NCBI GenBank assembly: GCA_046583315.1
Contig: JAYGCN010000214.1
Location: 1-34,228 of the forward strand
Direction of reading: 5' to 3'
From: Candidatus Hydrogenedentota bacterium
GTDB lineage: Bacteria; Hydrogenedentota; Hydrogenedentia; Hydrogenedentales; GCA-2746185
DNA length: 34,228 nucleotides
Under the pieces are notes generated by a model. The model was not told the DNA's origin, searched no databases, and saw only the letters and a program-made list of their open reading frames with translations. Below, piece after piece: positions 24,250 through 34,228 of the stretch (positions are counted from its first letter, which is position 1; each line of letters opens with the position of its first letter). A program made the position numbers and the translations under genes.

Positions 24250-25761
24250 TTGACTATTCGATTGGTATCGAGCGGAACGATAGTGCGTGTCGTATTAGCG
24301 AGTTTGGTGCTGATTGCCCAAGCCATTTCGGCTCAACCGTCAGCAAAGGTGCTGGCTTCGGGCGATTTACCGGACACTCCAGTCGGACAACGCGCGGAGG
24401 CGTTGATTGAGGCCTTCAACACCGGCGGTCTGGACGTGTTGGAAGCCTTTGTGGCATCGAACATGGAACCCGCGGCGCTGCGTCAACGTGGCACGGCGCG
24501 CTCGGTGGCATCGTATTGGGCCGGCGTGTTTGCGGAGGCCGGACCCCTCACCTTTCATTCAAAGGAAGACGTGACGCTAGGCGGACGCACTCGGGAGGTC
24601 CTCTGGTTCCAGGCGGATCGTACGCGCGCATGGATGGGCATCGCCCTGCGTGTCGAAGAGAATTCTCCCCATCAACTCACGGGCTACAGCGTCATCCGTG
24701 GACTCCGACCAAGCACGGCCACCCCGCTGGACGTCTCGGAAGATGAATTGCCCGCCTACCTCAAGGCCTACCTCACATCCATCGCCGAACACGACCGCTT
24801 TTCCGGCAACGTACTCATCGCGAAAAACGACATCATCATTTTCGAAGGAAGCTACGGCGACGTGAAACCCGACTCGCGATTCCGTTTGGCCTCCGTCACC
24901 AAAATGTTCACCGGCATCGCCATCGCGCAACTCGCCGAAGCAGGCAAACTCAATTTCGACGACCCCATCAGCAAACACATCCCCGAATACCCCAAGCATG
25001 TCGCCGACAAAGTCACCATCCACCAGCTCCTCACGCACCAGTCCGGCATCGAACTCGACGACTACGGCCGCTACAACCGAGAAATCGAAAAAGCGAAGTG
25101 CATCGAAGAACTCCTGACGATTCAACTCAAATACCTAGAACACCTCAATCGCGGCAACTACGAAAATTTCGAGCCCCTCGGCAGTTACGACTACACCAAC
25201 GAAGGCATCGACCTGCTCGGCGTCATCATCGAACGCGCCAGCGGAAAAAACTGGTCCAAGTACATCCAGAAAAACATCTTTGCGAAAGCAGGCATGAAAT
25301 ACACAGGCGTGGACACATTAAAAGGCGACCCCGGCCTCGTCACGGGATACACCGGCACCAATCGCGCAGGCATGTTCCTCGCCGAACGCCGCGCGGTCAA
25401 TGGCGAAAAAGAGAACAGCGCACTACGCCCCGCCGGCAGCGGTTGGTCCACAACGCACGATATGTATGCATTCATCAATGCACTCAACATGAACAAACTG
25501 CTCTCCCCGGAAATGACGAAAACCGTGCTCAGCCCGCACATCAACACCGGCATCGTGGACTACGAATTTTACGGCTACACCTTCGATATCGACCTCGGCG
25601 ACACCCTGCCCATCTTCGGCCACCGAGGCGGTGCCCCCGGAATCAGCACCGCCGTCCGCCACTACCCTGACATCGGCTACACCGTCATCGTACTCTCCAA
25701 CTACAGCCGCGCAGGCGACGTCGCGCTCAACCACATCGAAGACATTCTCGCGGCGTTCTAA
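24250..25761 (+). CDS. Serine hydrolase (beta-lactamase class C/PBP-like) with extra N-terminal domain
   Basis: FRLASVTK (SxxK), LLTHQSG, YDYTN (YxN), GHRGG, VIVLSN; signal peptide; GAGGAGG SD before TTG. Confidence 0.9.
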   Translation: MTIRLVSSGTIVRVVLASLVLIAQAISAQPSAKVLASGDLPDTPVGQRAEALIEAFNTGGLDVLEAFVASNMEPAALRQRGTARSVASYWAGVFAEAGPLTFHSKEDVTLGGRTREVLWFQADRTRAWMGIALRVEENSPHQLTGYSVIRGLRPSTATPLDVSEDELPAYLKAYLTSIAEHDRFSGNVLIAKNDIIIFEGSYGDVKPDSRFRLASVTKMFTGIAIAQLAEAGKLNFDDPISKHIPEYPKHVADKVTIHQLLTHQSGIELDDYGRYNREIEKAKCIEELLTIQLKYLEHLNRGNYENFEPLGSYDYTNEGIDLLGVIIERASGKNWSKYIQKNIFAKAGMKYTGVDTLKGDPGLVTGYTGTNRAGMFLAERRAVNGEKENSALRPAGSGWSTTHDMYAFINALNMNKLLSPEMTKTVLSPHINTGIVDYEFYGYTFDIDLGDTLPIFGHRGGAPGISTAVRHYPDIGYTVIVLSNYSRAGDVALNHIEDILAAF

Positions 25762-27248
25762 TCGGAATCTGCGCCAAAGAGATCCTGAATGCCTTTTTGC
25801 AAGCTCTCGGTTTCAGCGATGACGGGCGTTCCAGAGGCTTTGAGTCCTTCGAAATCATCGGCCCACACGCCGTCGCCATCAAACAAATAAAACGAGTCCC
25901 AATCAATCGGGCCGAGGTGTTTGGTTGAAACGTGTTCTTCGATCCAAATTCCCAATACTTTCTCTTCATCCCAGTAATGGACAACACGTTTGTCATCCAA
26001 TAGGCTCGTCTTCCAACGACTCTTCTTGTCGGTGGCGACCATGTTGAACCATACCGCGTAGATCTGGATGTCTTCGTCGGGATATTTATCGAGAATATTT
26101 AGTTGGACCCAACGGGCCCCCTTAACGCAGGCCGGTCACGTCGGTGAAAACAGCAACAACAGTCGACGTTTCCCCTTATCCCCGTTGAACTGCGCCTTCA
26201 GCGCATCAACACCTTCAAATGGTTTCAATGTAGTCTCCTCGACGGATTCTTCTTCGGTAGTCGGAGCTACAGCCTGCGGAGTCGCCTGTGCAACGTCAAA
26301 GCTCCCTTTATAGCCGGCACGTTCCACCGCCGCCAACAGTGCCATCTCCATCGGGCGGTCATCGGCAACAAACTGCACCGTCGCCAACCCACCTTCGTAA
26401 CTCACCTCAACGCCCGTGACGCCAATGACCTCTGCCAAGGTGTTATTCAACGTCACCTCGCATCCCTCGCAGCTCATGCCCGTCACATAGATGTCTACGG
26501 ACTCCTCCGCAACGAATTCGCCACTCGGTGTGGCAGGTTCTACCGCAAAGGCATCCACATACAACGGAAACGCCGCAAAGATCGCAACGCCCACCGTCGA
26601 AACCCAGAGCAATGACCGATTGAAGCGCTTAAATTTCACATTGTGCGCATCGCGAGCATAAGAAAAATAAAATCCAACCGACAACATCACAGCAGCCACA
26701 ACAAGAAAGAAGGGCCGAGTCGTTTCAAACATCGCAGCCGCGCCTCCAGCCGACACCCCAACAGCAACAAACGTCAACGGAATCCAGCAACAGGCGGAAG
26801 CCAATATCGCCGCCACCAACGATCCGCCGGTAGCCACGATTCCGACCTTCGAGTTCGCCTCAACGACAACCTCATTCGTCGAGCAACAGTCCTCCGTATC
26901 TAAACAGCAATCAACGGACTCCGAAATCGACCCCGTCGCGCTTTCCACCGCCATACCTGTCAAAGCGGTCGCAAGCATCTCACTCGAAGGCAATCCCTGC
27001 CCGTCATACGTGCGACACGAATATCCGAAACCGGTCCGCGTACGCGCTTCCGGTTCAATATCCAATCCGTCCACTCGAATCGAAGGCGAACCTAGAAAGC
27101 GCAGCGCGTTCGCGTCCTCCGGGCCATGCACCTCTACCTCTTCAATAGTGACATCCAACTCAAGCGCGGCAACCATCCGTTCCACATACCTCACCGCAGG
27201 CGGATGATTCGGGCACCCCTCAAAATAAAAAATTTCTACGCGTTTCAT
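25758..27248 (-). CDS. Probable selenoprotein: Trx-like + MerT + HMA(MerP-like) + Trx-like(UxxC) fusion, UGA at 26138-26136
   Basis: ORFs 26136..27266 and 25758..26042 are in frame across a single TGA: LLLLFSPT-U-PACVKGARWVQ. Domains: YFEGCPNH/FLGSPSIRVDG/SCRTY; SACCWIPL plus three TM segments; GMSCEGC. GAGGAG SD before ATG 27248; 496 aa, Sec at codon 371. Confidence 0.88.
26105..26119 (-). promoter_or_regulatory. Candidate SECIS hairpin
   Basis: GGGCCC-GTT-GGGTCC; loop begins with G at +23 after the UGA. Confidence 0.45.
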
Positions 27249-27295
27249 AGGTAATTCTCCTCGCATTCACGAATATGGATATCGCATCAAATTGT

Positions 27296-27327
27296 ACTAT
27301 ACACCTTGAACCCAAGTGAAAGGTCAA
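27296..27327 (-). promoter_or_regulatory. MerR-type promoter/operator of the MerT fusion gene
   Basis: Minus strand TTGACC (27327-27322), 20 bp spacer, TATAGT (27301-27296); dyad ACCTTgaacccaagtgaAAGGT at 27303-27324. Confidence 0.85.
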
Positions 27328-27363
27328 GCACATTCATCCAAAAATCGTGAAAACAAGGTTAAA

Positions 27364-28176
27364 TCATGACCTGTGCAGTAGATAGGGGTTCTTTTTGATA
27401 CTGTAGTCGTTACCCATCTTGCCGTGACCAATGACGACATCGGTGGGATACACATCGGAACGGACACCATTTAGCGGCAACCAGGTACGACCCTTTTTGA
27501 CGACGAGCACCAGACCGCGTGTGTCGCCCATGGCGGTAAAGCCCTTGGAGGTGAGTCCACGAAACGGCGTTTGGCCGAATCGTTTTTCAATGTCTGAGGC
27601 TACCTTGGGCACATCAGGCACCACGAGTCCAATTTCGCTCGTGAACAATATTTGACCCGGCCCGAACGGTTCAGACGAGCCGTTATAGAGATCATGATGC
27701 GCGATGAATTCCAGAATGTTGCCCACCGGATCGAGATAGAAAATCGAATGCGCATTCCAGTGGCTGAAATCACGAATCTTGCCACCCCTTGGGTTCACGT
27801 CGAGTACAGGGCATCGGGGTTCCAACCATTCGAGCGAGGCGTTCAACTGATTCTCCGGGATCGTAAAGGCGAAATGATAAAATGGATTCTCCCATTTGGC
27901 ATCGGGCGAAAACTCGACAACGGTCGGTCCTACCGTTATGCGCAACAGATCTTTCGAGACTCGCTCCACCGGCAGTTCGAGCACGTCGCGATAAAATGGT
28001 TCCTGCGCGTCCAAGTCGTTTGAACACAGGCGTAGTTTTTCCAATAACACAGGGCTGTCCGGAGCGACCTCTGCAGCCTGGACCCTGCCAGCCAACAACA
28101 TCTGAGGCGCGTGCATCGCAGCAATAATCGAAGCGGCAGAACCACGGATAAATTCACGACGGTCGGGTAGTTTCAT
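27364..28176 (-). CDS. VOC/glyoxalase-family protein with Tat signal
   Basis: DRREFI Tat motif; FYRDVLEL, FYHFAFTIP, WNAHSIFYLDPVGNILEFIA VOC motifs. Confidence 0.85.
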   Translation of the reverse strand: MKLPDRREFIRGSAASIIAAMHAPQMLLAGRVQAAEVAPDSPVLLEKLRLCSNDLDAQEPFYRDVLELPVERVSKDLLRITVGPTVVEFSPDAKWENPFYHFAFTIPENQLNASLEWLEPRCPVLDVNPRGGKIRDFSHWNAHSIFYLDPVGNILEFIAHHDLYNGSSEPFGPGQILFTSEIGLVVPDVPKVASDIEKRFGQTPFRGLTSKGFTAMGDTRGLVLVVKKGRTWLPLNGVRSDVYPTDVVIGHGKMGNDYSIKKNPYLLHRS

Positions 28177-28520
28177 AATTAATTCCTTACTCCACGTTTT
28201 GCGTTTGCCAGGTCGCCATGTCAATATATTCTCGCCATTCGACAATCTTAGCATCTTTCATCTAGACGGCCCCTAGACAAGGCAATACGACCTCCCTACC
28301 GTTCATGACAAAGCGATCAATGCTGTCGGCGAAAACCGTGTCACCCGACTCGGCGATGAAATCGTGAATTACTTGAACGCCTTGACTTAGGGGCATTTTC
28401 CTTGTTGGTACTTGTATTTTGTCAAGTGTTCCATTGACATATGAGCGATTACCTATTGCAACGAAAAATGAAGTTTAGAAATACGATTTACAATTATTCT
28501 TAAAATGCGATAAACCTCTC

Positions 28521-28549
28521 TTGACTAGGGATATTCCTAGTACTAAAAT
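28521..28549 (+). promoter_or_regulatory. Sigma70 promoter with palindromic operator in the spacer
   Basis: TTGACT (28521-28526), 17 bp spacer, TAAAAT (28544-28549); ACTAGGgATATtCCTAGT palindrome at 28524-28541. Confidence 0.65.
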
Positions 28550-28591
28550 CGAATTAACGGATCTGCTCTTGAATACGGGGGGTGTAATCTA

Positions 28592-29641
28592 GTGGTCATT
28601 TTCAGGCATGTTCGAACAATTCTGTGCTTAGTGTGCGCTCTTGCTCCGGCTGCTGGCGCGCAACAGACCGAGGAAAATCTGGAGAAGACCGATTTCATGG
28701 CCATGAGTATGGAGGAGTTACTCAGCATTCCGCTGACGCTTACCAATGTACTCGGCATTCATCATGCACATCCACGCGGAGAATGGATGGTCGGCTACCA
28801 ATACATGAGGATGGACATGGATGGAAATCTCGATGGCTCTCACAAAGTGAGCACGAGCGAGGTGCTGGATGACTACATGGTCGCGCCAACAGAAATGAGC
28901 GTGGAAATGCACATGTTTGATTTTATGTACGGAGTGACGGATCGCTTGTCCGTTATGGCCATGGTGCCCTACATTCGCAAATCAATGGATCACGCGACTC
29001 GCATAGGGTCCGAATTCACGACCGACTCAGAGGGTCTGGGCGACATTCAGTTCATGGCACTTCACACCATTCGCTCCAATCAGCGATTCAAAATTCACTA
29101 CCAAGTGGGTCTAAGTACGCCCACAGGTTCTATCGATAAGAAGGGCAACACTCCAGCAGGTCGCACGAGATTGCCCTACCCGATGCAGATTGGATCGGGC
29201 ACGGTGGATCTGTTGCCAGGCCTTACCATATTGGCCAACCACGATGATTGGTATTATGGGGCAAGTACCCAAAGTACCATTCGCCTGGGTCGAAACGATC
29301 GTGTTTATTCTCTAGGCGATGTAGTTAGACTTGATACTTGGATTAGTCGGGTAATCACAGACAATATAAGTGTTAGTTTTCAGGTGAATGGGAGGACGTG
29401 GGGCGACATCGATGGCGCAGATTCCGGCCTGGATCCAGCGATTGCCCCTACGGCGAATCCCAACTTGCGCGCTGGTAAACGGGTTGATCTCATCGTGGGC
29501 ATCAACTTTTTTCGAAACGAAGGCCGCTTCAAAGGCAATCGTATATCTTTCGAAATTGGCGCGCCAGCGTATCAGTCGCTGGATGGACCTCAACTTGAGA
29601 CCGACCTGCACACAAAAGTCGGTTGGCAATGGGCGTTTTAG
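28592..29641 (+). CDS. Outer-membrane beta-barrel 'transporter' (COG4313/MetA-phenol-pathway-like), Met/His-rich
   Basis: Signal peptide; HHAHPRGEWMVGYQYMRMDM; GLGDI; GLSTPTGSID; LPYPMQIGSGTVD; C-terminal WQWAF. Confidence 0.75.
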   Translation: MVIFRHVRTILCLVCALAPAAGAQQTEENLEKTDFMAMSMEELLSIPLTLTNVLGIHHAHPRGEWMVGYQYMRMDMDGNLDGSHKVSTSEVLDDYMVAPTEMSVEMHMFDFMYGVTDRLSVMAMVPYIRKSMDHATRIGSEFTTDSEGLGDIQFMALHTIRSNQRFKIHYQVGLSTPTGSIDKKGNTPAGRTRLPYPMQIGSGTVDLLPGLTILANHDDWYYGASTQSTIRLGRNDRVYSLGDVVRLDTWISRVITDNISVSFQVNGRTWGDIDGADSGLDPAIAPTANPNLRAGKRVDLIVGINFFRNEGRFKGNRISFEIGAPAYQSLDGPQLETDLHTKVGWQWAF

Positions 29642-29916
29642 TCCGGATAAATCTCGCGTAAAGTCGAATGCTCGCAATTCGCTCTCTCCCCTTACTTATT
29701 ATTTCTTCAGCATGCATGTTTTGAGGGACTTGAAACCGATACGTACAAGATCCAATACGGCGAGGTCAAAGGATACAACATGAGTACGCTCAGGAAGAAT
29801 GTACAAAAGATCGTTGCCACTTTAGGGAAAGATGTTCCCGGAATCGATTTTCCGATGTGGCGCAAGTGAGGAAGTATCGGGAGTGATCAATAAATGAGAA
29901 CTATACCGTAATCACG

Positions 29917-30802
29917 CTAAAACGTGAATCCCGCGCCGAGGTTGAATTGGGTTCCGTGCGATACTTGAGTTGCCCGAACATCTTCATATACAGGGAATTT
30001 TACTTCCGACCGTACCATGACGTTATCTCGATACCAGACCAATACCGGACCCACCGATATCCTTTTTCCACCGGTTGTTCCTGCACCATTGACCCCTCGA
30101 TCCTCCGCGCGCGCCTCTAAATCGACCATAAGGAATATGCCTGTGTTCGTTAGGTTGTTGTGATACGGATGAATTCCGAGGTTCAGGTCAAATCCTAGGA
30201 CGTCTCCCTGTTCTATCCCCTTTTTTCCGTCTCCATTTTTCCAATAAAAGAGATCATAAAACTGGAACAGGTTCGCCGCCTCCGCACTGAACGAAGCACT
30301 CAATCCCACGTCCCAACTCCCGTCCCCCACGGGATAGGCATCGTCCGTGGAGCCCGTGGGCATACGAACACTCGGGGTCAGTCCAAAATTACCCGTGCTG
30401 GACTCCTTGTTATAATACCGTTTCAATTGGAGTCCAAGTATCGCGTCCCCGATACCACGGCCACGCTGTCGAACAGGCGTGCCAGCTTCCAACACCGTTC
30501 GGCTCTGATCAATCCAGGGCACTTTCGCCGTAACGCGCAGTTCACGTTTGAAGGTGTAAACGCCTTCCAACCACGTGGTCCGAATCTCAAGTTTCCGACC
30601 CAGGGGATTTTCCGTATCTTTCGTCCCACTCATCAAATCATCGGAGGAACGATTTTCATGGCGCACCTTGAAATCCCCAGCCGCCTTCCCAGCGCGGAGC
30701 CATGTCCATAACCGGCTGGTGCGCCCAAGCGGAACCCGATATGAACATCACCAATAAAACGAGAACCGTGGCCCCAGATATTCCGCGCCTAATCATGCTC
30801 AT
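29917..30802 (-). pseudogene. Outer-membrane beta-barrel 'transporter'-family protein, frameshifted near 30667
   Basis: MSMIRRGISGATVLVLLVMFISGSAWA-HQPVMDMAPRWEGGWGFQ joins VRHENR... if one G is removed; GIGDAILG, RMPTGST, C-terminal GAGFTF; ATG overlaps upstream TGA (ATGA). Confidence 0.72.
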
Positions 30803-31356
30803 TCTTCTTTATGCAGTATCGTATTCAACTCAACCGAAATCATCTCGTCATCACCCAACGTCGAAATTTTCTTCGCATCGAGTCGCACTTGAAGGTCGAC
30901 ATTTTCCATGTTCACCAAATCAGCGACCTTAGTCCCCAAGAGGACAAAATATTGCCCTGAGTCAGCCGACGTGATGCGAATCGTTTCACCGACCTTTGCA
31001 ACCCGCCCCTTCACGCGAAGATGCATCGTCACGGGATCATACCCGCCCTTCTTGATACGAGTGTACACCGCGCGAACAGGAATTCGTTCGCCGGGTTTCA
31101 ACGCAATCGTAATTCGATGCGCATTGATATCAACCAACACACCGTCACCGAAAATCGTGTTGTCCAATCCTTCAAGCCTGACCAGGCCCTTCTCCGCTCC
31201 CTGAGCGCAGAAACTTCACACAATTCCATAAACTTGAACGACCACCTGATTCGGATTGACCGTAATTTCCGAAAATTTCTTGTCAGTAGCATTGGCAAAT
31301 CCGGCGAACATCAGTGACATGATCGACAGGAATATCCACACTTTTTTGTTCGACAT
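30799..31356 (-). CDS. Probable selenoprotein: exported HMA/MerP-like metal-binding protein (GIV-U-SFC), UGA at 31218-31216
   Basis: Manual translation MSNKKVWIFLSIMSLMFAGFANA-TDKKFSEITVNPNQVVVQVYGIV-U-SFCAQGAEKGLVRLEG continues in frame into ORF 30799..31167 (...IKKGGYDP); GAGG SD; 185 aa, Sec at codon 47. Confidence 0.85.
31190..31212 (-). promoter_or_regulatory. Candidate SECIS hairpin
   Basis: TTCTgCGCTC-AGG-GAGCGgAGAA stem-loop starting 4 nt after the UGA, with a G-containing loop. Confidence 0.55.
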
Positions 31357-31428
31357 GATGTTACCTCGTTGAGAAATCAAAGACATTCCTATTGAATGTC
31401 TTGGTTCTTGAATTCTTTTCCTGTCGCT

Positions 31429-31460
31429 ATTCTAAACCTTGCACCAAGGTATAGGGTCAA
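31429..31460 (-). promoter_or_regulatory. MerR-type promoter/operator of the Sec-HMA/barrel operon
   Basis: Minus strand TTGACC (31460-31455), 20 bp spacer, TAGAAT (31434-31429); dyad accttgcaccaaggtatagggt at 31436-31457, similar to the 27303 site. Confidence 0.85.
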
Positions 31461-31514
31461 GTCCTTAACCAAACAAATTCCCAGAGCCGCTTATACTGGA
31501 CAGGATTGAGACGC

Positions 31515-31940
31515 TTAATCGTCCGTACTACGAACGACCGAACGACTCCGTTTGAGATCGCTCCGACGATGTTTGTTGTCCATTCGCTTGGCTTTGGCAC
31601 CCGCAGATGGTCGTGATTTGCGGCGACTTTTCGGAGCTTTCTCAGCTTCCTGAATGAGCGCGATAAGACGTTCAAGGGCTTCCTTGCGATTCGCCGACTG
31701 ACTACGCTTGTTTGTGGCGGCTATCACGAGGACACCCTCGTTGGTCAATCGAGAACCCGCGATACTCCTCAACCGTCGTCGCACATCATTATGCAGCGAC
31801 GGTGAATGGGCCACATCGAAGCGAAGTTGTACCCCGGACGAAGTCTTGTTGACATGCTGACCACCCGGGCCAGACGCCCGAATGAAATGCTCTTCGATCT
31901 CGTCGTCGGATAACGATATTTTTTCGGAGACACGTATCAT
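31515..31940 (-). CDS. arfB: Alternative ribosome rescue peptidyl-tRNA hydrolase ArfB
   Basis: FIRASGPGGQHVNKTSSGVQLRF, RSQSANR, basic C-terminal tail. Confidence 0.95.
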   Translation of the reverse strand: MIRVSEKISLSDDEIEEHFIRASGPGGQHVNKTSSGVQLRFDVAHSPSLHNDVRRRLRSIAGSRLTNEGVLVIAATNKRSQSANRKEALERLIALIQEAEKAPKSRRKSRPSAGAKAKRMDNKHRRSDLKRSRSVVRSTDD

Positions 31941-31943
31941 GTT

Positions 31944-32369
31944 CTATGACGATCCTGGCTGCGCAGATTCTTCCGTAAGCGTTTCCAGTACTTCACAATG
32001 CTCCTTATCCCCGGAAGCCCGACAGGTCTTCAAAAAATCATTCAGGTGGCGATCGATTTCCTTCAGATCCTTGAGGCGCGCGCGTACTTCCCCGAGTCGG
32101 TGCTCAATGAGATGCTCGACTTCTTCGCACGGCGTGGTCACCCCATCGCGAACGCCCAGCAGACGCGCAATGTCTTCAAGACTGAATCCCGCCGACTGTG
32201 CAATACGAATAAACCGCACGCGCTCGACCGCATCCGGGCCATACACGCGATAATTGCCCTCCGTGCGCCCCGAAGGCACCAGCAAATTCGCTCGCTCGTA
32301 GTACCGCAACGTCGAGGTTGGCACATCCACTTCCTGCGCCAGACGCCCTATGGTTTGCTCAATCGCCAT
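31944..32369 (-). CDS. Heavy-metal-responsive MerR-family regulator
   Basis: TIGRLA...STLRYYERANLL.P.GRTEGNYRVY; GFSLEDI; Cys81, Cys116, Cys125 (C-x34-C-x8-C) counted from MAIEQT. Confidence 0.93.
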   Translation of the reverse strand: MAIEQTIGRLAQEVDVPTSTLRYYERANLLVPSGRTEGNYRVYGPDAVERVRFIRIAQSAGFSLEDIARLLGVRDGVTTPCEEVEHLIEHRLGEVRARLKDLKEIDRHLNDFLKTCRASGDKEHCEVLETLTEESAQPGSS

Positions 32370-32376
32370 ACCTATC

Positions 32377-32408
32377 ACGATAGCAGACCTTGGGAAATCC
32401 CGCAAGGC
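32377..32408 (-). promoter_or_regulatory. Putative merR promoter with a third MerR-like dyad
   Basis: Dyad ACCTTG-ggaaatcccg-CAAGGC (32387-32408); minus strand TTGCGG, 17 bp spacer, TGn-extended TATCGT, then 7 nt to ATG 32369. Confidence 0.55.
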
Positions 32409-32486
32409 TGAATCGTGATAGGTCGATAAGGTACGATTGATATCGCGATTTAGCGCTACGCTATTGAATAATGCAGAAGGTCGCAA

Positions 32487-33242
32487 ATGAACGAAACGAC
32501 TCCACAACACGACACGATGAGTTTAGGGTCACGTGCCATTGAACTCGCGAGTATCCTGGCTGCCATCGGACTCGTGATCGCTCTCGTGTTTCGTTTCTCG
32601 CTTACTCCGGACATGCTCACTTGGTCGACCCCTGTCGTGTGTATCCTTGCGATGTTCGCCGCCGATTTCATGTCCGGCATGCTTCATTGGTTTGCCGACA
32701 CCTGGGGAAGGGATACCATGCCAGTCCTTGGACGGCGACTGCTTCGACCGTTCCGCGTACATCACGTGAATCCAGACGATTTATTGCGACGGGATTTTAT
32801 CGATGCGAACGGGGATGTCGCGATGCTCGTTGCACCTTTTCTGATTCTCGGTCTAACCTTGCCTCTGGATTCAAGTGCCGGGCGGATCTGCGCACTCTTC
32901 TTTGCGGTCTTCGGTATCGCCGCGCTACCGACAAACCAGATTCATCAATGGGCGCACATGAGCCATCCACCCCGATGGATAAAGTGGCTTCAAGATTTCG
33001 GCCTGATTCTAGGTCGGAGGCAGCACCTGAAACACCACGCGGAGCCGTACAACAAGCATTACTGCATCACCTTTGGCTGGTGCAACGAGAACCTGGACAC
33101 CACCAATTTCTTCCAATCGCTGGAACGGATCATTACGCGGCTGACGGGTTTGCAGCCTCGACAGGATGATACGGCGTTCATCAATCGCTCCGGTGTTGCG
33201 GAGGTCAACGATCCGTTCGAATCGAGCGGCGACCAGAGATGA
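32487..33242 (+). CDS. CarF/TMEM189 (FAD4/Kua)-family lipid desaturase
   Basis: ADFMSGMLHWFADTWG, FRVHHVNP, TNQIHQWAH, HLKHH, YCITFGWCN His motifs. Confidence 0.88.
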   Translation: MNETTPQHDTMSLGSRAIELASILAAIGLVIALVFRFSLTPDMLTWSTPVVCILAMFAADFMSGMLHWFADTWGRDTMPVLGRRLLRPFRVHHVNPDDLLRRDFIDANGDVAMLVAPFLILGLTLPLDSSAGRICALFFAVFGIAALPTNQIHQWAHMSHPPRWIKWLQDFGLILGRRQHLKHHAEPYNKHYCITFGWCNENLDTTNFFQSLERIITRLTGLQPRQDDTAFINRSGVAEVNDPFESSGDQR

Positions 33243-34228
33243 CTACCCCTTCTTCAAGAAAATTCGGCTCGGGGTGGATTAGCGGCACCGCGTAGATCGC
33301 ACTGGGAGCCTTGGGACTCGGAACCGTTCTCTGCTTTTTATACCCGACCGTGCTCACGGTGCCGGAACTTCGAAGCCTCTACCCCCTCCCCTATGTTCGC
33401 GCACTGCTCCATACCGTGCTCGTGTCCGCTTTTCTGCTGGGAGTCTTGTCCGTCGTGCTGAGACAACGAAAACGGATGGGCATGACCGGCATCACGCTCG
33501 TCCTCATCGCGGCGTTATTGGGCGGCTCAAAAGTTCCGATCACCCGAACTGAAGACGACGGATTATTCTTTGGGCTCGATTGGTTTCTACTCAACTTAAT
33601 TCTGTATTCGGTCGCATTCATCCCGATGGAAAGGATGTTCGCGCGTAAACCTGAGCAGCGCATACTTCGCAGCGAGTGGAGAACCGATTTGGCCTACTTT
33701 TTCATCAGTTCATTCCTTCTGCAGACTACCACAATATTAACCATGAACCCCGCAATGGTTTTCTTCGACTAGGCCGCAAGCGAGACCATTCAGATGCGTA
33801 TAGGCGCACTGCCCTTCATCGTTCAGTTCGCGGCCATACTGGTGTTCACCGATCTAACGCAATATTGGGTACATCGAATGTTTCACGTGATCCCCGTATT
33901 GTGGCGCTTTCACGCTGTGCATCATTCCGCCGAAACCATGGACTGGTTGGCCGGATCACGCGTGCACATTGTTGATATAGGCGTAACCCGCGGCCTCACT
34001 TACATCCCGATTTACATCCTCGGATTCTCAGAGACCGCTCTGTTCACCTATGTCGTATTCGTCAGCATCCAGGCGACGTTCATCCATGCGAACATTCGAT
34101 TCGAATTTGGGTCGCTACGGTGGTTGTTCGTGACACCCCAGTTCCATCACTGGCATCACGGCGCAGAGAAAGAAGCCATAGACAAGAATTTCGCCGTCCA
34201 TCTTCCGTTCTTCGATTGGCTATTCGGC
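33239..34228 (+). pseudogene. Sterol desaturase/fatty acid hydroxylase family protein with in-frame TAGs at 33293 and 33770 (runs off window)
   Basis: One frame from ATG 33239 (ATGA overlap with the CarF-like gene): FGSGWISGTA*IALG...PAMVFFD*AASE...YWVHRMFH...RFHAVHHS...IHANI...PQFHHWHHG. Confidence 0.82.

Follow-up and report, generated by a model that had tools for sequence, protein, structure and literature searches.

The window analysed here is a 34,228-nucleotide stretch of DNA (contig JAYGCN010000214.1 of assembly GCA_046583315.1) from a marine Candidatus Hydrogenedentota bacterium, the genome of which was 4.65 Mb in size and 96.66% complete with 5.38% contamination. The window contains two genes with in-frame UGA codons, designated gene A and gene B, each behind a MerR-type promoter, together with a gene for a MerR-family regulator. 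An earlier note, prepared from the sequence alone, had proposed that they form a regulon in which selenocysteine (Sec) is used to capture and transport mercury or another soft metal. Judged by sequence comparison, the locus represents a variant of a mer-like regulon with two selenoprotein families that apparently lack curated models.

Genes and promoters of the candidate regulon

The frames of both genes were found by translation with TGA read as Sec (U), and both lie on the minus strand. Gene A (25758–27248, 496 amino acids) consisted of a DF domain, a linker with the pattern CC..CC, a MerT-like part, an HMA domain, and a C-terminal thioredoxin domain with the putative Sec. Gene B (30799–31356, 185 amino acids) consisted of a signal peptide, an HMA-fold domain with a U47xxC50 motif, and a small C-terminal beta domain. 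Each of the two units was headed by a gene with a UGA in a UxxC motif, as described earlier, SPT-U-PAC in gene A and IV-U-SFC in gene B. Translation with table 11 splits both genes, and the database records of the contig (P0045 and P0003) are pieces of them, which agrees with the expectation that gene callers would fragment the locus.

Promoter A (27296–27327, minus strand) consisted of TTGACC, a 20-bp spacer, and TATAGT, with a 22-bp dyad; promoter B (31429–31460, minus strand) had the same layout with TAGAAT. The dyad arm pairs matched at 7/9 and 6/9 positions at the two promoters and the sites were identical at 23 of 32 bases, so that the same long-spacer dyad promoter indeed precedes both units. 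The consensus shared by the two sites occurred twice in the 4.65-Mb genome, both times in the window, and in none of 3000 shuffles of the region; because the sites themselves supplied this pattern, the counts show rarity and not function. Independent support for the operator was provided by its recurrence beside merR genes in two other genomes (G113 and G125). Activation of long-spacer promoters by metal-bound MerR is an established mechanism, as described in the accessible sections of PMC11672702.

The MerR-family regulator (31944–32369, minus strand) showed the C-x34-C-x8-C pattern ascribed to it in the earlier note, formed by C81, C116, and C125, and these three residues align with the ligands of Hg-MerR; no Asn was present four residues after C81. 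The closest MerRs, from genomes G113 (49%), G102 (51%), and G007 (51%), formed one clade with the window MerR (support 100/99), and each of their genes is followed by a similar operator with a 20-bp spacer. In G113, merR is followed by the operator and then by a gene for a DF-MerT-HMA protein (44% to gene A). The window shows this arrangement too, except that arfB (31515–31940, minus strand), which has no evident role in the regulon, is inserted between merR and promoter B. The occurrence of orthologous merR genes with the same operator in other genomes argues that the promoters are MerR-type and that the window MerR is likely their cognate regulator. Genes A and B very probably form a MerR regulon. 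Neither promoter is divergent from merR.

A near-perfect 54-nt hairpin (32370–32423, minus strand; z −5.69, 0/200 shuffles; single copy in the genome) abuts the merR start codon and contains a third dyad, ACCTTG-N10-CAAGG (32387–32408), a possible site of autoregulation. The hairpin would hide the ribosome-binding site of merR. A perfect, terminator-like 9-bp inverted repeat with a 5-nt loop (31380–31402) lies between promoter B and the start of gene B, where it might act as an attenuator or as a further operator. One additional full-length MerR was found in the genome (G000, C253:1975-2943); it has its own perfect dyad promoter, which drives a divergent gene for a 155-amino-acid Cys-rich secreted protein. 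In G113 and G007 (loci L061/L076 and L063/L078), an operator of the type seen in the window governs a Cys-rich secreted protein (CPVSG...CCPSC) that is homologous in the two genomes.

Residues 4–95 of gene A belonged to the DF family NF049942 in its Cys form (107.1 bits, cut-off 70), and the linker before the MerT domain carries two CC pairs. The MerT/MerTP-like part scored below the cut-offs of the MerT and MerTP models; its membrane CC at 153–154 was present, and its loop Cys pair, kept in 17/18 MerT-HMA relatives with a single Cys in the 18th, was missing. The HMA domain (GMSCEGC) scored above the Pfam cut-off. MerB fusions were found in 2/18 of the MerT-HMA relatives; P0214 and P0217 (Planctomycetota) are MerB-MerT-HMA fusions in which MerB occupies the position of the DF domain.

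The C-terminal domain of gene A, with its U371xxC374 motif, was predicted to adopt a TlpA/DsbE/ResA-like thioredoxin fold (pLDDT 95.6; Z 12.5, root-mean-square deviation (rmsd) 3.4, 125 residues aligned). It resembles these oxidoreductases in fold (Z 11–12.5) and in the position of the U/C-x-x-C motif and differs from them in sequence (9–20% identity). None of the 33 aligned members had an NCBIfam match over the last 163 residues, and Pfam gave a single, spurious family for one of them. A full HMMER search with this domain revealed 874 representatives at E ≤ 0.001. In most members of the family the domain stands alone in a secreted protein that has no metal domain. Other relatives are fused to HMA, DF, and MerTP-like domains, and P0070, P0083, and P0092 have CcdA-like membrane domains, read by eye and without an NCBIfam match. 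In a single record, P0118, the thioredoxin fragment following the UGA site is fused to a full MerA (516.7 bits, cut-off 454.45), a possible Sec-thioredoxin-MerA fusion. The thioredoxin profile matched nothing in three genomes with the Cys-form cassette described below and gave one weak match only among 301 genomes of another phylum. Because gene A has three hydrophobic stretches without a signal peptide, its DF domain would lie inside and its HMA and Sec-thioredoxin domains in the periplasm, in line with the signal peptides of the stand-alone thioredoxin relatives. By its modelled structure, the Sec-thioredoxin is more suggestive of a reductase acting in the periplasm than of a step in transport.

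Gene B had no Pfam HMA match by sequence. Its predicted structure (pLDDT 86.9) had HMA domains as top structural matches (Z 9.8, rmsd 2.0, 71 residues aligned), and the fold matched CopZ, ZntA, and ATP7B domains as well as or better than MerP. An atlas search with a gene B homologue gave an unnamed cluster of 434 members and HMA clusters below 0.9. No full-length match to gene A or gene B was obtained among the 40 relatives searched, and when plasmids were searched with Cys-containing homologues of the two Sec domains there were zero matches.

Very probable selenocysteine at the two UGA codons

The complete Sec machinery (selA/selB/selC/selD) could be identified in the genome, with selA, selB, and selD above their cut-offs and a tRNA-Sec. 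In gene A, the UGA (26136–26138, minus strand) corresponds to Sec371 in the context LLFSPT-U-PAC. Among the best 150 of the 874 relatives, 73 have Cys at this position, 72 start just after it, and 5 have another residue. The DNA of G113, a genome with selA, revealed a UGA at the same site in a stand-alone thioredoxin with a signal peptide, and the truncated record P0127 lies at zero branch length from the piece that follows this UGA. Two of the 18 MerT-HMA relatives, P0207 (57%) and P0208 (44%), whose contigs measure 175 and 37 kb, extend into the thioredoxin and stop at ...LLFSPT or ...LLLSPT before the UGA site, and both cluster mates of P0207 (P0225/P0226) likewise end at the residue preceding it. 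Because the clusters of P0207 and P0208 end at that residue, the MerT-HMA-thioredoxin fusion with a stop at the UGA codon is, as read from these records, not unique to the window strain.

In gene B, the UGA (31216–31218, minus strand) corresponds to Sec47 in the context YGIV-U-SFC. The site was VCSFC in 34 of 41 homologues, and the remaining 7 start downstream of it. A tree of the part following the site (42 rows) placed gene B and these 7 N-truncated relatives in one group (91/89), which held at 88/86 after 14 rows were left out; the placement of gene B with three Cys sequences was rejected at p-AU 0.0002, for a group picked after the tree had been viewed. As six members of one truncated cluster, on different contigs of 785–1936 bp, all share a length of 120 amino acids, contig edges are an unlikely cause of the truncation. 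We infer from the tree and the truncations a putative Sec-type clade of gene B with at least 8 members.

A correspondence of UGA with Cys, for which the earlier note had suggested a search, was found for both genes, with Cys at the UGA site in homologues and records that break there. The presence of selA/B/C/D, the Cys at the site in homologues, and the independent breakage of database relatives at the codon together argue with high confidence that both UGAs encode Sec, and thus that both genes are selenoprotein genes. Contigs of run X1, which may be the source sample, cover both UGA codons unchanged. Run X5 had no change of the type that yields a Cys codon, the sole such change in X2 lies elsewhere, and X3 had four changes of this type at positions that are not placeable.

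A hairpin resembling a selenocysteine insertion sequence (SECIS) was located for gene A at 26105–26119 (minus strand; loop GTT, 22 nt after the UGA). A hairpin at least as stable was obtained for 37/120 random TGA codons in the case of gene A and 51/120 in the case of gene B, and whole-region folding of the SECIS stretches was no better than that of shuffles (z −0.1 to −1.3). SECIS-like hairpins are therefore not discriminating alone and add little. The genome (G000) contains at least 7 other UxxC/CxxU/UGSC selenoprotein candidates with SECIS-like hairpins (C207:86996(-), C232:11382(-), C101:3371(-), C77:6149(-), C94:800(-), C9:4131(-), and C303:9791(+)), and the gene A hairpin fits the pattern of these 7, with loops GTT, GTC, GTG, GTA, AGTT, AGTTG, and AGCTG at 16–25 nt; named by motif, the candidates are presumably AhpD-like CxxU, UGSC, and several redoxin UxxC proteins.

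Outer-membrane barrels, cassette and strain variation

The two outer-membrane barrels listed in the earlier note were both present as sequences; one proved to be frameshifted and the other lies outside the MerR units. Barrel C (29917–30802, minus strand), a COG4313/PF13557-type channel behind gene B, is a pseudogene in the window strain, in which a one-base insertion near 30668 closes the frame after 48 codons and an intact frame is absent. The insertion was present in contigs of X1, X2, and X5, from two studies, and absent in X3. The X3 contig skips 27588–30241 (2654 bases) and so lacks all of barrel D, the tail of barrel C, and the first part of the VOC gene described below (one contig). With the insertion in one strain and the deletion of its end in X3, barrel C is, by its sequence, non-functional in both strains seen. 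In both strains the frames of gene A, gene B, and merR are open to the extent seen. Compared with the window, X3 carries 30 substitutions over 26211–27587, without a gap; 27 of these are in gene A, with no stop introduced and no Cys touched.

Barrel D (28592–29641, plus strand; PF13557) is convergent and has its own promoter with a 17-bp spacer and no MerR dyad. As a part of the relay it was rejected, being on the opposite strand, without the dyad, and deleted in the X3 strain. In its promoter region (28380–28591), the 17-bp spacer is overlapped by a CTAGG..CCTAG palindrome, with a similar site upstream, and a TAC-G-tract-GTA element, which we take to be CsoR/RcnR-like, precedes the barrel D start. 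The His/Met-rich N-terminus and the promoter of barrel D suggest a separate, putatively metal-regulated channel.

The barrel-C family has an almost invariant N-terminus, HQPVMDMAPRW, and 9/13 of its members match PF13557, as does barrel D. In this it is similar to the COG4313/PF13557 channels such as Pput2725; it differs in being tied to HMA and MerT-like genes and in its His/Met N-terminus, hydrophobic organic compounds being the solutes reported for those channels. According to the accessible text of PMC4493636, the lumen of the solved COG4313 channel is plugged by its N-terminal segment, and the family is associated with solutes that are hydrophobic.

The surroundings of barrel C were surveyed in 19 loci fetched with the gene B alignment, from which L043 was excluded as an unrelated HMA protein; many of the loci were taken from marine datasets that resemble one another and cannot count as independent. 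The barrel-C homologue adjoins the gene-B homologue in 17/18 loci, and the contig of the 18th ends at the gene. A small CCALP membrane protein is next in 11/18, a long-spacer dyad promoter is present in 10/18, and merR is visible in 6/18. More distant versions in the phylum of the window lie behind GTAC-type operators (L055, L057, and L058). This Cys cassette of an HMA protein, a COG4313-type barrel, and a MerT-like protein is widespread. An arrangement of merR, a DF-MerC-like fusion, and a small thioredoxin-like gene also recurs behind GTAC-type operators (L055, L067, L068, and L070), and none of these four genomes had a MerA above the cut-off.

Other features of the window include a VOC/glyoxalase-like protein gene (27364–28176, minus strand) upstream of promoter A, with weak Fos-family matches only and no evident role in the regulon. 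A desaturase/hydroxylase-like gene (33311–34228) is apparently split by a TAG (33770–33772), its frame running on beyond, and is adjoined by a lipid desaturase gene (32487–33242). The Rfam search of window positions 25000–34228 gave zero matches.

Candidate metal, mechanism and known systems

The top PDB matches of the window MerR were the Hg-MerRs of Bacillus and Tn501 (82.1 and 82.0 bits), with PbrR at 77.8 and CadR at 75.3 bits. The window MerR has Glu (CEEVE) where PbrR (CGEVN) and CadR (CGSVN) share Asn, and it lacks the ZntR motif CCxxxHxxxxC; an Asn four residues after the helix Cys is a feature of PbrR and CadR in the sections of PMC11672702 that were accessible. Of the soft metals the earlier note had left open, mercury is the best supported by sequence, since a three-Cys MerR without the PbrR/CadR Asn is accompanied by relatives fused to MerB or MerA, and with modest confidence it may be taken as the main inducer.

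No MerA above the cut-off was found in the window, as already stated in the earlier note, or in the genome, where the best match (384.8 bits, cut-off 454.45) was a PRK06370-type oxidoreductase without the C-terminal CC; C308 was rejected as MerA. MerB was likewise not found in the window or the genome, a weak blank as the search matched in no control genome. MerA scored above the cut-off in 2/135 genomes of the phylum. Mer transport without MerA is classically harmful.

The best explanation of the locus as a whole, to which about an even chance may be given, is a mer-like regulon without a reductase, in which two selenoproteins serve periplasmic capture and buffering. The metal that binds MerR would be soft and divalent, Hg(II) or an organomercurial being the likeliest; MerR would then activate both promoters, and the metal would be bound in the periplasm by the U-x-x-C loop of gene B and the HMA domain of gene A. 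The TlpA/DsbE-like U-x-x-C domain of gene A would most likely keep the HMA sites reduced, or exchange metal, a role suggested by its fold, by the fusions to HMA, DF, MerTP, and MerA, and by the CcdA-like partners seen by eye. In the ancestral cassette the route may have led from a COG4313-type channel to the HMA protein, the MerT-like protein, and a cytoplasmic acceptor, which in relatives would be DF, MerB, or MerA. The relay from barrel through Sec-HMA to MerT that the earlier note proposed is probably not intact in the window strain, where the co-transcribed barrel is broken, the other barrel lies outside the regulon, the cytoplasmic Cys pair of MerT is gone, and no MerA was found. With the channel broken and the Cys pair and MerA missing, capture and buffering are probably more likely there than import and reduction, and the output would include at most limited import.

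Several observations weigh against this explanation. The clade of the window MerR (100/99) lies apart from those MerRs of the phylum that have GTAC-type operators. Its score was 119.1 bits against a TIGR02051 cut-off of 150.85, Hg-MerR outscores PbrR and CadR by a few bits only, and the C-x34-C-x8-C spacing is found in PbrR as well. Elsewhere the Cys cassettes follow MerRs of various types, several of which have just two Cys or differ in spacing and have TGGAG..CTCCA operators, so that the cassette is not tied to one metal. Only 1/10 genomes with a strong MerR match (completeness 76–97%) had a MerA above the cut-off. The SECIS candidates of gene B are weaker than those of gene A, and every fetched locus of the gene B family that covers the UGA site has Cys in its DNA. 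Further, as at least 7 other Sec candidates make this a Sec-rich genome, Sec may not be a mercury or metal adaptation here, and the reductase role assigned to the modelled Sec-thioredoxin draws on fold and fusions alone.

A regulon with the same selenoproteins that responds to a metal other than mercury (Cd, Zn, Pb, Co, Ag, or Cu) is the strongest alternative, and is clearly less probable. In the absence of MerA, a MerT-like importer would be understandable if it served to take up or buffer some other ion, and such a reading accords with the lack of MerA or MerB matches here, the 2/135 genomes with MerA, the 5–7 bits that separate PbrR and CadR from Hg-MerR, the likeness of the gene B HMA fold to CopZ, ZntA, and ATP7B, and the diverse MerRs and operators of the Cys cassettes. 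It is opposed by the MerB and MerA fusions among relatives and by the regulator, in which the third Cys speaks against CueR and GolS, the missing Asn against PbrR and CadR, and the absent motif against ZntR (PMC11672702, accessible sections).

It is rather unlikely that the locus is a decaying, horizontally acquired mer remnant in which Sec is real and incidental and no useful metal handling is left. Barrel C broken in two ways in two strains, the lost Cys pair of the MerT loop, arfB between merR and promoter B, the lack of full-length matches to either gene among 40 relatives, and the many other Sec candidates would fit such decay; however, merR is intact, as are the two Sec genes and their operators, the 30 substitutions of X3 (26211–27587) introduced neither a stop nor a gap and altered no Cys of gene A, the same MerT-HMA-Sec-thioredoxin fusion is seen in two other clusters, and gene B belongs to a putative Sec-type clade of 8 or more members. 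A regulator that senses thiol-reactive stress from oxidants or electrophiles, with the selenoproteins as periplasmic redox repair enzymes, would account for the thioredoxin-fold Sec domain and for its mostly stand-alone secreted family without a metal domain; the three-Cys metal site, the low scores for NmlR (38.8 bits) and SoxR (56.8 bits) against 119.1, and the MerT and HMA proteins as targets make it highly improbable. Least probable of all is that the UGAs are true stops or assembly errors in two pseudogenes, for although the neighbouring barrel C is truly frameshifted and SECIS-like hairpins are common by chance, each UGA takes the place of the first Cys in a conserved CxxC, the breaks in independent records coincide with these codons, the genome has the full Sec machinery, and the X1 contigs, perhaps of the source sample, cover both codons unchanged.

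The proposed reductase-less regulon shares with classical mer operons (merR, merT, merP, and merA in Tn21/Tn501 and Bacillus) a three-Cys MerR, a MerT-like CC pair, MerP/HMA-fold binders, and a long-spacer dyad promoter, of 19–20 bp in the accessible part of PMC11672702. It differs in the two separate promoters, Sec in place of Cys, the added DF and Sec-thioredoxin domains, the broken outer-membrane channel gene, the missing Cys pair of the MerT loop, and the absence of a detected MerA or MerB; as MerA was searched for and not found, the regulon is not a member of the classical type.

Selenoproteins of the MerT/HMA kind and mercury-linked selenoprotein operons are known from the accessible portions of several sources (PMC13188914; bioRxiv 2022.07.06.499078; PMC12013277, PMC13326102, PMC13745706, PMC1976440, PMC8261052). 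The types described in the first two include PF02411 'putative mercuric transport protein' with C/SxxU, MerT with a CU motif, NF045683, NF041115 with UxxU, and P1B-ATPase HMA domains with UxxC. The window proteins are like these MerT/CopZ-type selenoproteins in placing Sec in metal-handling MerT/HMA proteins. They differ in that the MerT and HMA domains of gene A are Cys-only with Sec in the appended thioredoxin, and that gene B is a stand-alone secreted protein of HMA and beta domains. The NF045683 MerT/CopZ fusion model scored 56.2 bits against a cut-off of 375, and NF041115 (cut-off 95) gave no match for gene B at E 0.01, with weak matches in 14/42 members of its alignment (best E 5.3e-5). 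In the DF (seleno)protein family NF049942, the DF domain of gene A is a Cys form fused to MerT-HMA, its Sec being in another domain. The SAO system of Clostridioides difficile (Haft and Gwadz) is similar in having several selenoproteins, including a UxxC thioredoxin-like one, and a proposed mercury-like metal; in the part of its description available, it is a nine-gene operon of anaerobes with ABC transport and a MerB-like lyase, and MerR is not mentioned. The Sao models gave zero matches among the window-related proteins tested.

Neither Sec domain passed a curated selenoprotein model in the searches made. Genes A and B matched no family by motif and domain in the part covered of the 119-entry table of PMC13188914, which lists UxxC redoxins and HMA/MerT selenoproteins of other layouts. 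Word searches of titles and abstract openings, with incomplete coverage of the literature, found neither a MerR-controlled selenoprotein regulon nor an HMA-COG4313-MerT cassette described.

A MerA-independent mercury defence, in which Hg would be trapped as Hg-Se adducts by MerR-induced periplasmic selenol proteins with selenium as the sink, may also be conceived, and we consider it a doubtful proposition. The COG4313-type channel with its His/Met plug would admit neutral lipophilic HgCl2 or methylmercury chloride, the fused Sec-thioredoxin would recharge or unload the selenol proteins, and mer-like systems in the ocean would have, in the Cys-form cassette, an outer-membrane arm that is widespread and has been overlooked.

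The two selenoprotein families that gene callers split comprise a large periplasmic-type thioredoxin family and a secreted HMA protein. Placed under a metal-sensing MerR, such selenoproteins would allow a direct test of the long-standing idea that bacterial selenols bind mercury. That no reductase was found, with Sec under a mercury-type switch, hints at another way of handling toxic metal. The recurring cassette of a MerR promoter, an HMA protein, an outer-membrane channel, and a MerT-like protein usually occurs without merA, and if it handles mercury, surveys based on merA only would miss part of marine mercury cycling.

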